From Alphaproteobacteria bacterium (GTDB lineage: Bacteria > Pseudomonadota > Alphaproteobacteria > Rs-D84), in contig WRKW01000001.1 of the NCBI GenBank assembly GCA_009777955.1, positions 162,309 to 226,308 on the forward strand: a DNA stretch of 64,000 nucleotides, in the 5' to 3' direction. Below are positions 22,553-27,184 of the stretch, piece after piece. The position numbers were made by a program, and so were the translations under genes. The notes beneath the pieces were generated by a model. The model was not told the origin of the DNA. It made no database searches and worked only from the letters and a program-made list of their open reading frames with translations. Within the stretch, counting starts at the first letter, position 1. Every line of letters starts with the position of its first letter.

Positions 22553-25500
22553 ATGGCTGGAACGGAGAGTTTTTTAGTGAAAAAATCGAGCGTTTCATAC
22601 CTTGTGATTCTTGCTTTGTGTCCGATGGTTGCACAGGCGGCTTCGACCGTGCGCACATCTTCTGCTGGTATATCTTCCAGTACAAGTGCCACACAGTCTG
22701 TGGGTTCTATTGGTTCTTCCGCTTTGAAATCTGTCGGTGCTTCTACTTCCAGTGGAAGCGTTTCTCGTGTTCCCGCAATGCCAAAAGGCGCCACTAGTGG
22801 TTCGCTTACCAGTTCGGGCAGTTGTGTGAACTGTCCTGATGTGGACTTATCAGATTATGCAAAGCGCAGAGATGTTGATGCCGTCGAAGCCCGTGTTGAT
22901 GATTTGGAAATCGAGTTGGATGGTAAGGCAAATATTTCAGATGTGTATTTTCAGCATGAAGTTTATAACAAAGAAGAAATTCATGAATTGCTTGATGACT
23001 TTCAGTCTGGCGAAGATGGCGCGACAGGCCCCCAGGGTCATCAAGGTGAAACCGGTGCGACAGGTGCACAAGGTGCTGCCGGTACCGATGGTACGGTTGG
23101 AACCCAGGGTTTCCAGGGTTTCCAAGGTGTGACTGGTGCGACTGGGGCAGTCGGTGCCCAGGGTGCTACCGGCGTACAGGGTGCGACAGGATTGGTCGGT
23201 CTTTCAGCATATCAGGTTGCGTTATCCAGATCCAATGTTCTGGTCGGACTCCCGGAAAATGCAACTGAGATTCAATTTTTGGAATGGTTAAAAGGACCAC
23301 AGGGTGCACCAGGATCTGCGGGACTGCAAGGTGCCCAAGGCCCGCAAGGTTCGGCTGGTAGTGGTAGCGGTGGTGGCGGTGCCCAAGGCCCAGCAGGTCC
23401 CGCTGGTCCGGCGGGTTCGGCGGGCCCCCAGGGTAATATAGGGCCTCAAGGCCCAGCAGGCCCAGCAGGTCCGGCGGGTCCGGCAGGTTCGGCGGGTTCA
23501 GCGGGTCCCGCTGGCCCGGCGGGTTCCCAGGGTAATATAGGCCCCCAAGGTTCAGCAGGTCCGGCCGGTCCGGCGGGTTCAGCGGGTCCCCAAGGTATTA
23601 TGGGGGCTCAAGGTCAGGCTGGTGCCCAGGGTGCAGCGGGTTCTCAGGGTGCGCAAGGAGCCCAAGGAGCCCAGGGTGCGGCGGGTTCTCAGGGTGCGAC
23701 AGGAGCGCAGGGAGCCCAAGGTATAGGTGTAACCGGCGCACAGGGTGCGACAGGAACCCAGGGTGCGCAGGGAGAACAAGGTGTCCAGGGTACAGGTGCA
23801 ACAGGTGCAACAGGTGCGACAGGTGAAACAGGAGTCCAGGGTGCACCAGGCTTGACAGGACCCCAAGGCGAGCGAGGAGAAATAGGTGCCGGTATATCCG
23901 CGTATGCCATGGCTCAGGCACAGGGATATTCGGGAAGTGAAATTGAATGGATTGCATCTCTGAAAGGTGCGACCGGAATGTCTGCGTTTGAACTTGCTCA
24001 ACAACAGGGGATTGCCGCAGGTATGACAGAATCGCAATGGGTAGAGTCATTAAAAGGTTCGACTGGTGCTACTGGTGCAACGGGTACTGATGAATATCAG
24101 GTTGCGAGTACCCTTATAAACAATCCGAATTTTATAGAGTCTGTAAGAGGTCCCAAAGGAGATCAGGGTGCCCAAGGTGTGACTGGTGCCGAAGCTTGGC
24201 AGGTTGCGGATATACTTAAAGTCGATAGCGAATTCCTAGAATCTGCGAGAGGATATCAGGGTGTGACCGGTGCAGCCGGTGCGACCGGTGCTAGTGCGGA
24301 AGAGATAGCAGAACTACTTGTCGTAGATCCATTGTTTGTTGACGCTGTAAAGGGACCAACCGGTCCGACCGGCGCGCAGGGACAGGATGGCATACTTGGT
24401 GGTGATGGTAAATCCGCGCTTGAAGTTGCAAGGGAATATATGAATCTTCCCAATATGACATTCAGCGAATGGTCCGAATTTTTAAGAGGAGATGTCGGTG
24501 TGGCCGGCCCGACCGGCCCGACTGGTGCCGCCGCGTGGCAGGTTGCCGAAGTGCTTAAAGAAGATAGCGAATTCCTAGAATCTGCGAGGGGATATCAGGG
24601 TGAAACTGGTGCTACCGGTGCCACCGGTGCGACTGCGGGACAGGTTGCCGAAGTGCTTAAAGAAGATAGCGAATTCCTAGAATCTGCGAGGGGATATCAG
24701 GGTGAAATTGGTGCTACCGGTGCTACCGGTGCGACTGCGGGACAGGTTGCCGAAGTGCTTAAAGAAGATAGCGAATTTATGGAGTCTGCGAGAGGATATC
24801 AGGGTGTGACCGGTGCGACCGGTGCGACTGCGGGACAGGTTGCCGAAGTGCTTAAAGAAGATAGTGAATTTATAGAATCCGCAAGGGGGCATCAGGGTGC
24901 GATCGGTGCGACCGGTGCGACTGCGGGACAGGTTGCCGAAGTGCTTAAAGAAGATAGTGAATTTATAGAATCCGCAAGGGGGCATCAGGGTGCTACCGGT
25001 ACATCAGCGTTTAATTTGGCTATAGAAGAGGCCGGTTACGATATATGGGGTGGGGTCAACAATTGGCTTGATTCCTTGAAAGGTGCTACCGGTGCTACTG
25101 GTGCCACCGGTGCGACTGCGGGACAGGTTGCCGAAGTGCTTAAAGAAGATAGTGAATTTATAGAATCTGCAAGGGGACATCAGGGAACACAGGGTGTAAC
25201 GGGCGCAACTGGTGTTACCGGTGCGACCGGTGCGACCGGTGCGACTGCGGGACAGGTTGCCGAAGTGCTTAAAGAAGATAGTGAATTTATAGAATCTGCA
25301 AGGGGACATCAGGGAACACAGGGTGTAACGGGCGCAACCGGTGTTACCGGTGTAACCGGTGCGACTGCGGGACAGGTTGCCGAAGTGCTTAAAGAAGATA
25401 GTGAATTTATAGAATCCGCAAGGGGGCATCAGGGGGTTGCTGGTGCTGCGGGTATATCTGCGTTCGAGCTTGCTATCGAAGAAGCCGGTCACGATATGTG

Positions 25501-27184: not shown

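Follow-up and report, generated by a model that had tools for sequence, protein, structure and literature searches.

The gene considered here lies in a 64-kb stretch of contig WRKW01000001.1 (below, the window), whose host was placed in the alphaproteobacterial order Rs-D84 as a relative of Candidatus Enterousia. We found a single open frame of ~4.6 kb at 22553..27184 on the plus strand, coding for 1543 aa without interruption. The gene stands antisense between the fabH-ihfA and rpmF-plsX pairs, both of which are on the minus strand; argS is a further neighbour. An earlier description made from the letters alone (the sequence-only reading) had this gene splitting plsX from fabH, and the open frame together with the Pfam assignments of the flanks agreed with it. 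The product combines a predicted signal peptide, collagen-like Gly-X-Y triplets, a long series of repeated modules and a distal end made of phage tail-fibre-type modules. Members of Rs-D84 have genomes of ~0.7-1.6 Mb from which most biosynthesis is missing, the reduced genomes have a coding density of 90%, and a dependence on partner cells has been proposed for the order (PMC12306168).

The N-terminal sequence was recognized by rule as a Sec-type signal peptide, as had been proposed. It has a two-lysine n-region (KK), a hydrophobic core of 13 residues and an A-x-A site, and the best 11-residue window has a mean Kyte-Doolittle hydropathy of 2.79. The product translated from the GTG codon discussed below begins MKKSSVSYLVILALCPMVAQA, which is followed by AS at the predicted cleavage point. 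A reading of 'LALC' as the mark of a lipoprotein was ruled out by the Leu at position -1 before the Cys.

Glycine makes up 18% and alanine 13% of the residues. We counted 189 Gly-X-Y triplets in runs of at least four (567 residues, ~37% of the protein), with short runs reaching as far as aa 1190. The Pfam Collagen model PF01391 scored 103.6 bits against a cutoff of 27.2 (E 4.5e-30), above the gathering threshold; this was the scan recommended earlier, and it gave the match that had been expected. The collagen region proper has 266 aa in two blocks (66 + 200 aa) that are parted by a 29-aa non-collagen module, and the longest strict Gly-X-Y run has 40 triplets, or 120 aa (aa 273-392). Therefore, the triplets of the sequence-only reading stood, but its description of about 300 aa without interruption did not. 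The charged segment just before the collagen is a candidate trimerisation nucleus, like the domains that flank bacterial collagens; no family matched this segment.

Beyond the second collagen block the protein takes on a beads-on-a-string form, in which small modules are spaced by 4-8 Gly-X-Y triplets each. The 'B' module (22 aa, AGQVAEVLKEDSEFIESARG; ..QVAEVLKEDSEFIESARG) is present 13 times, and eight of its copies, lying within aa 660-958, are near-identical. Of the 'SAY' module (SAFELAIEEAGYDMWGGVNNWLNSLRG type) there are ~12 across the whole protein; the short modules number ~25 altogether. Tandem Repeats Finder reported DNA repeats between 24510 and 25779 with periods of 93, 102, 120, 129, 186 and 231 bp and identities of 82-93%. 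The periods of 93, 102, 120 and 129 bp, at 88-93% identity, correspond to units of 31-43 aa, in good agreement with the block of near-identical 31-42-aa repeats seen at the start. The near-identical B copies differ mostly at synonymous positions (AGC/AGT, TCT/TCC, GCG/GCA, AGG/AGA, GGA/GGG) and at one variable residue (L/M/I), which fits a recent duplication with the peptide sequence maintained. Another tandem repeat, of 111 bp, was reported at 26293-26532. Near the C-terminus the cores of three longer repeats were located at aa 1383-1396 (VSKTGNYEHLNELP), 1423-1436 (VSRTGNYDHLIDIP) and 1464-1477 (VSKTGDYTDLHNTP).

The distal non-collagen modules are, as judged by sequence similarity, homologous to annotated phage tail proteins. 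The YVWDG module matched phrog_8780 (minor tail protein) with an E-value of 1.6e-16 in a PHROG scan and showed 55-59% identity to two metagenomic proteins (P0004, P0006). In a tblastn search, aa 1141-1354 matched 369 phage records, mainly minor tail proteins of Gordonia and Mycobacterium phages and tail fibres of Ralstonia jumbo phages. The best of these matches was the tail fibre of Nocardia phage NBR1 (43.7% over 151 aa, E 1e-21). The three distal SAY modules (aa 1248-1349) also have homologues in tail proteins of phages and prophages. A word-indexed search of aa 1190-1543 against 5.8 billion proteins returned 37 relatives, which covered the YVWDG and SAY modules only and never the last 170 aa. 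Two of the 37 (P0014 and P0020) were looked up, and both were inside true phage clusters: one cluster encodes a terminase, a portal and a connector, and in the other there are a tape measure, Sipho_Gp37, a holin, an endolysin and an integrase.

For the C-terminal repeats, an exhaustive phmmer search of aa 1340-1543 against 1.84 billion representatives yielded 330 proteins with E-values of 1e-3 or less (best 4.4e-38), and every one of them aligned over the 40-47-aa SKTGxY repeat. Among 69 of the repeat relatives that were scanned, 51 fell into phrog_17509 and 16 into phrog_9729 (tail fiber), and some carried Collar or Gp10_C domains. The annotated tail fibre of the Ralstonia phage phiRSL1 has the same motif in tandem (VATSGSYTDLTNKP; VARTGNYSDLNGLP). 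The three repeats had been taken earlier for a phage-fibre type, and these results support that view, but the family label given to them, PF03406 (Phage_fiber_2), has to be dropped: this model had no match on aa 1350-1543 even at E<=10 and none on the phiRSL1 tail-fibre repeats, and it was present anywhere in only 2/69 of the relatives sharing the repeat. When the C-terminal 194 aa were scanned on their own against PHROG, nothing significant came up, and a search of viral and metagenome contigs with the C-terminal 354 aa gave zero relatives. A PDB sequence search for the C-terminal tip found no relatives, the B-module region had no match by tblastn in 50,697 phage records, and a degenerate DNA pattern for VAEVLKEDSEF had 0 matches in metagenome and viral contigs. 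We observed signal-peptide-like N-termini in 11 of 187 module-sharing proteins; secreted proteins with the same phage-type repeat thus appear to exist elsewhere already, and they give a precedent for secreted versions of these modules.

The surroundings of plsX were compared (+/-10 kb) in 80 related loci with 1.34 Mb in total, of which 73 were informative. The best PlsX relatives were 70-79% identical and came from metagenome-assembled genomes (MAGs) labelled Rickettsiales, Alphaproteobacteria or Candidatus Enterousia. The giant protein had no tblastn match in any of the 80 loci, while in eight of them plsX, fabH and ihfA are direct neighbours, separated by 8-92 bp; five of the eight also have a Pom gene upstream, exactly as in the window. 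By this synteny comparison, which bears out the insertion proposed earlier, the gene is a lineage-specific insertion of ~4.8 kb that parted plsX and fabH, which were coupled before. Neither a Gly-X-Y run of at least 7 triplets nor the SKTGxY motif was found anywhere in the 1.34 Mb.

The remaining loci showed considerable variability. In 7/80 loci fabH was on the same strand at a distance of 4-9.6 kb with unrelated cargo between, in 6/80 fabH-ihfA was inverted, 52/80 had no fabH within the available flank, and in 7/80 the contig ended within 1.2 kb of plsX. The sequence-only reading had assumed a conserved cluster; the adjacency itself was found in the eight relatives, but it is not conserved in the clade (8/73 informative loci). 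The plsX/fabH junction is a general hot spot of rearrangement and cargo in Rs-D84 and not a strongly conserved cluster.

The third codon positions of the gene have a GC content (GC3) of 0.39, inside the host range of 0.28-0.48, and stay at 0.33-0.43 per 150 codons throughout. The overall GC of the gene is 0.52-0.62 because of its Gly and Ala codons; the genome has a GC of 42%, and the gene is intact across all 1543 codons. The 64-kb window contained no phage genes or phage families, no integrase and no second collagen-like gene. Its tRNAs are at 2.3 kb and 41 kb only, none of them near the gene, and a comparison of the insertion borders gave only chance matches of <=9 bp for target-site duplications and inverted repeats. 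The absence of phage genes from the window, which the sequence-only reading had reported for the neighbourhood, and the host-like GC3 are in keeping with a gene that was domesticated or acquired rather than with a prophage. The same conclusion had been reached earlier, and the lineage-specific occurrence and the phage-type modules agree with it. Nothing observed pointed to giant viruses, which the sequence-only reading had also named as carriers of such proteins, although no test was aimed at them. Readings of the gene as part of a diversity-generating retroelement (DGR), an extracellular contractile injection system (eCIS) or a gene transfer agent (GTA) were dropped, there being no supporting genes within the window.

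Table 1. Features of the giant gene and of its immediate flanks, in positions of the window; aa numbers count from the ATG at 22553.
Feature	Position	Strand	Basis or remark
ihfA (IHF/HU)	21159-21446	-	Pfam
fabH, left flank	21479-22450	-	Pfam ACP_syn_III + ACP_syn_III_C
Promoter-like TTGACG-18 nt-TAACAT, upstream of the gene in the intergenic region shared with fabH	22525..22554	+	consensus scan, 9/12 matches
Shine-Dalgarno GGAGAG (22564-22569) and probable start codon GTG (22577-22579)	22564..22579	+	sequence reading; 7-nt spacing
Sec-type signal peptide MKKSSVSYLVILALCPMVAQA, predicted cleavage AQA/AS after aa 29	22577..22639	+	rule-based reading
Ser/Thr/Gly/Ala-rich low-complexity linker, aa 30-94	22640..22834	+	sequence
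Charged segment, probably helical or coiled-coil, aa 95-152, just before the collagen	22835..23008	+	sequence only
Collagen block 1, 22 triplets, aa 153-218; best PF01391 stretch aa 153-211	23009..23206	+	
First SAY module (LSAYQVAL...EWLKG), aa 219-247, interrupts the collagen	23207..23293	+	same type as the modules at aa 818-1349
Collagen block 2, ~67 triplets, aa 248-447, three register breaks	23294..23893	+	9/18/27/45/69-bp tandem periods
Beads-on-a-string region, aa 448-1175, 13 B and ~8 SAY modules	23894..26077	+	tandem repeats, module list
YVWDG module, aa 1176-1247	26078..26293	+	homology to phage minor-tail/tail-fibre proteins
Three further SAY modules, aa 1248-1349, two forming a 111-bp tandem repeat	26294..26599	+	
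Three 40-41-aa repeats L.G.i.LH.VSKTGxYxxLxxxP, aa 1372-1477	26666..26983	+	
Orphan C-terminal tip, 66 aa, aa 1478-1543, ends ...VLPEWTW; candidate binding end	26984..27181	+	
Terminator-like hairpin GCAAGT-TGG-ACTTGC with T-rich tail, between the gene stop and the convergent plsX stop	27222..27236	+	consensus match only
plsX, right flank	27239-28300	-	Pfam FA_synthesis, E 1.4e-93
rpmF (L32, 57 aa), directly upstream of plsX	28322-28495	-	read by eye from the translation MAVPKKKTSKAK

The features of the locus are collected in Table 1. The GTG at 22577 is likely the true start of the gene, and not the ATG at 22553, which falls within the -10 element of the promoter-like site. This site is a consensus match only, and the scan found about equal numbers of sites in shuffled sequence. 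The fabH frame as listed is probably 11 codons too long: the alignments with its relatives set in at residue 12, and the proteins of these relatives start with MGNR or MGSR, which would put the real start at M12 (22417) and make the divergent region between fabH and the giant gene ~159 bp long. By cutting fabH-ihfA off from rpmF-plsX the insertion would have left this pair in need of a promoter of its own; the consensus scan of the minus strand of the intergenic region found no sigma-70-like site for fabH. Minus-strand frames inside the gene (23579-24050 and 24677-25939, for example 23579-24037 and 25004-25939; 150-311 aa) were rejected as shadow frames of the Gly/Ala-rich repeats.

The Rs-D84 loci also showed what else has accumulated around plsX. 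Recurrent cargo at the junction (e.g., L012 at 11071-17110, L016, L019, L027 and L072) includes a MraZ-like gene (MSLFLSSYENRLDTKGRISVP, recognized by eye) and a family of secreted proteins of 660-830 aa (MKRFIAVLSGLLVLPAFAEV). In the close relative L002 (PlsX 77% identical), the stretch 11159-14348 directly downstream of plsX is orthologous to 34409-37862 of the window. The orthologues, a GNAT acyltransferase, an acyltransferase and proS (48-78% identity), are in the window on the far side of Pom, a placement that points to an inversion or translocation with a breakpoint at plsX. There is also a second lineage-specific insertion, a 1007-aa frame at 28605-31628 (+) between rpmF and the Pom porin gene. 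It had no match in 80/80 loci, and in the relatives Pom is directly upstream of plsX. No Pfam family was assigned to it. By eye, it has two GHKL/sacsin-like ATPase motif sets, DDGETG...GENGEGLK (aa 219-251) and GDNGRG...GKFGEGLK (aa 576-612), as well as HEVGH, a zinc-protease motif, at aa 961 in its C-terminal part; in NCBIfam it had only a faint sacsin ATP-binding-like match (E 0.008).

Elsewhere in the window we identified housekeeping genes (argS, a YbaK-type editing protein, a Mur ligase, S1, adenylate kinase, proS, RNase PH, RNase E/G and ClpB), peptidases of the M24, M48 and M23 families, and envelope proteins (an autotransporter, Slam, a Pom-type porin and a lytic transglycosylase). The autotransporter, at 11619-13658 (-), is of the pertactin type with AC_1, Pertactin and Autotransporter domains. 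The Slam gene (surface lipoprotein assembly modifier, PF04575, E 5e-28) is at 7030-8463 (+), within 5378-8463, and is notable in an alphaproteobacterium with a reduced genome. The 539-aa frame that precedes it has no Pfam family and could be the surface-lipoprotein substrate of Slam. A 322-aa protein at 17417-18385 (+) has a signal-peptide-like N-terminus and a sub-threshold match to the trypsin active site (19.5 vs 20.6 bits). Four consecutive large frames (913, 597, 420 and 383 aa) at 38079-46329 (-) have no Pfam family at E<=1e-5; a tRNA-Leu (41053-41137) sits between the first two of them.

We compared the protein with the closest known systems. By function it resembles collagen-like surface proteins such as Lcl, Scl1/2, BclA and the Pasteuria fibres, and by descent it resembles collagen phage fibres. 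The best NCBIfam match was the Lcl model NF046116 (E 8.6e-61), with 205.8 bits below the curated cutoff of 500. Lcl of Legionella pneumophila is likewise made by a Gram-negative host and has an N-terminal signal peptide, a collagen region of variable length, a non-collagen C-terminus and no covalent anchor. In contrast to Lcl, the present protein is ~3-4 times longer and carries phage-fibre modules; the match was confined to the collagen (aa 152-375), and the Lcl C-terminal domain is absent. The streptococcal Scl1/SclA and Scl2/SclB are secreted trimeric collagen-like surface proteins in which a non-collagen domain nucleates the triple helix, as may be the case here if the protein is a trimer. 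Their models NF038330 and NF038329 scored 136.2 against a cutoff of 400 and 178 against 325, thus below both cutoffs and through the collagen part only. Unlike them, our protein has no LPXTG (its C-terminus is ...QVLPEWTW) and has the opposite polarity: the variable domain of Scl stands distal at the N-terminus, whereas here the phage-like tip is found at the C-terminus.

With the BclA fibres of Bacillus and those of Pasteuria, the protein would share a cell-proximal N-terminus, a variable collagen stalk and a C-terminal end that is distal and binds. In BclA and Pasteuria fibres the number of repeats is expected to be polymorphic. They are, by contrast, Gram-positive spore-surface proteins with a C1q-like C-terminal domain, and we detected no sequence relationship to them outside the Gly-X-Y regions.

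Among phages, prophages of E. coli O157:H7 encode collagen-like tail-fibre proteins (Ghosh et al. 2012, PMC3368898). These fibres and those of actinophages (NBR1) have Gly-X-Y segments joined with phage-fibre modules as in the present gene, and the YVWDG and SAY modules are directly homologous to actinophage minor tail proteins, by the NBR1 and phrog_8780 matches given above. Those fibres are encoded in phage structural clusters and have no signal peptide, whereas our gene is solitary among housekeeping genes, starts with a Sec signal and has 3-5 times their length. Two marks of a working phage fibre are thus missing, the context of a phage gene cluster and the lack of a secretion signal (the signal being judged by rule). 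The repeat '(V/A)(S/A)xTGxYxDLxxxP' is common to the present protein, the phiRSL1 tail fibre ORF188 and the proteins of phrog_17509 and phrog_9729. The long array of phiRSL1 repeats the motif at intervals of 13-20 aa, as opposed to three copies 40-41 aa apart here; a motif spacing of 40-47 aa is also common among the metagenomic repeat relatives.

The explanation that we favour, and to which we give about an even chance, is that an exapted phage-fibre gene now codes for a Sec-exported, trimeric, collagen-like surface fibre or adhesin of a partner-dependent bacterium. It is based on the signal peptide, the Collagen match, the phage-type distal modules, the solitary position among housekeeping genes, the absence in relatives and the host-like GC3, and the other surface machinery of the window (autotransporter, Slam, Pom porin) was counted in its favour. 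We infer export, trimerisation, surface display and adhesion from the sequence. A phage tail-fibre-type gene would have been captured by the chromosome, landing at the labile plsX/fabH junction, and its virion-attachment N-terminus would have been swapped for the signal peptide and the Ser/Thr-rich linker. The signal peptide would carry the chain over the inner membrane, after which the charged helical segment (aa 95-152) could align three chains and nucleate the collagen triple helix of aa 153-447. The rise of a collagen triple helix is ~0.29 nm per residue, so the two long collagen blocks would measure ~76 nm, and the triple helix would reach ~160 nm if all 567 Gly-X-Y residues were helical. 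The next 730 aa would make a segmented rod, in which short triple helices alternate with ~21 small helical modules and which recent tandem duplication may have expanded. The polarity of a phage fibre would be retained, in which the N-terminal end attaches and the C-terminal end binds, and the distal end (YVWDG, SKTGxY repeats and the orphan tip) may bind a surface structure on a partner cell, a host cell or the matrix.

Several observations count against this explanation. The N-terminal aa 1-168 had no homologues among the 5.8 billion proteins of the word-indexed search, the B-module region (aa 505-777) had no matches in the same type of protein search, and for the last ~60 residues not even the 187 module-sharing proteins contained a significant relative; with these three parts orphan, no ligand can be identified. 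No outer-membrane route or anchor is evident (no beta-barrel, lipobox or LPXTG). The terminal ...EWTW was tried as an outer-membrane beta-signal; it fits in part only, and we set it aside for want of support. An AlphaFold2 model of aa 1176-1543 from the single sequence reached a pLDDT of only 35.9. The contigs of seven relatives stop <=1.2 kb from plsX, and such assembly breaks could hide a repeat-rich gene there. The choice of Arg and Gly codons departs from that of the host (AGA+AGG 0.69 vs 0.20; GGT 0.58 vs 0.29), which suggests incomplete amelioration, with figures inflated by the internal repeats.

These same codons, and the fact that every recognisable non-collagen module is of the phage tail-fibre type, also speak for another reading: the product could be an orphan tail fibre in use by a phage-derived particle (a prophage, a tailocin, an eCIS or a GTA) encoded elsewhere in the genome, with the signal peptide unused. 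The fibres of some such particles are indeed encoded apart from the main cluster, for example in the Rhodobacter gene transfer agent. We find this improbable, because phage fibres assemble in the cytoplasm and the present protein has a canonical Sec signal and a low-complexity linker where the baseplate-attachment domain is expected. In addition, the 64 kb of the window, the DNA examined, hold no phage or tail genes, and genomes of ~1 Mb in this order leave little room for a particle cluster. If the protein is exported, it might instead act as a structural coat (a hair-like nap or spacer), or by molecular mimicry of collagen to engage the collagen receptors of a host or its immune lectins, with no tip-specific adhesion. 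BclA and Pasteuria fibres form naps, ~37% of the protein is Gly-X-Y, the recent tandem duplications that lengthened the rod suggest that length matters, and the Lcl, SclA and SclB models scored through the triple-helix region alone. We nevertheless regard a coat or mimic as rather unlikely: a complete phage-like distal end is kept (YVWDG, SKTGxY repeats and a unique tip), which is the binding end in phages, and the scores are under every curated cutoff for known collagen adhesins.

That the gene is what is left of an old prophage, without function but not yet decayed, appears very unlikely. It is solitary and lineage-specific with orphan ends, as a relic might be, but 1543 codons have neither a stop nor a frameshift, the repeat copies differ mostly at synonymous sites, the start signals are intact, and reduced genomes with 90% coding density shed dead genes fast. 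An assembly artefact, in which a phage-derived repeat fragment was mis-joined or the repeat number was collapsed or expanded by short-read assembly, is in our view most unlikely. Repeats of 93-231 bp at 82-93% identity are difficult to assemble, several related MAG contigs stop just past plsX, and a look-up of the exact protein in the contig index gave no record. Against this, one 4.6-kb frame runs without interruption, the GC3 is host-like along the whole gene (0.33-0.43 per 150 codons), and both flanks are collinear with the relatives. The junctions are tidy as well, with the promoter-like site, Shine-Dalgarno sequence and start on one side and the hairpin and convergent plsX stop on the other. 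A genuine locus may still have been assembled with a wrong number of repeats.

A more specific form of the exapted surface fibre, which we put forward tentatively and think possible but doubtful, is that of a Sec-exported cell-to-cell tether, well over 100 nm long as estimated from the Gly-X-Y content, in an obligately partner-dependent bacterium. Its phage-style tip would recognise the surface of a partner or host, and the orphan B module AGQVAEVLKEDSEFIESARG, in alternation with short triple helices, would be an undescribed rod unit whose copy number tunes the reach of the fibre.

The protein is one more member of an already large class, the bacterial collagen-like surface proteins, and we consider it moderately interesting for its host lineage, for the size of the gene relative to the genome and for the orphan B module. 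It may also serve as a clean example of a phage receptor-binding fibre rewired for secretion by the cell, and variation in the number of repeats would make a natural target for strain typing. The Rs-D84/Enterousia bacteria are uncultured gut bacteria and have been proposed to live off partner cells. An intact gene of 4.6 kb takes up ~0.5% of a genome of ~1 Mb, which makes it a concrete candidate for an attachment organelle.

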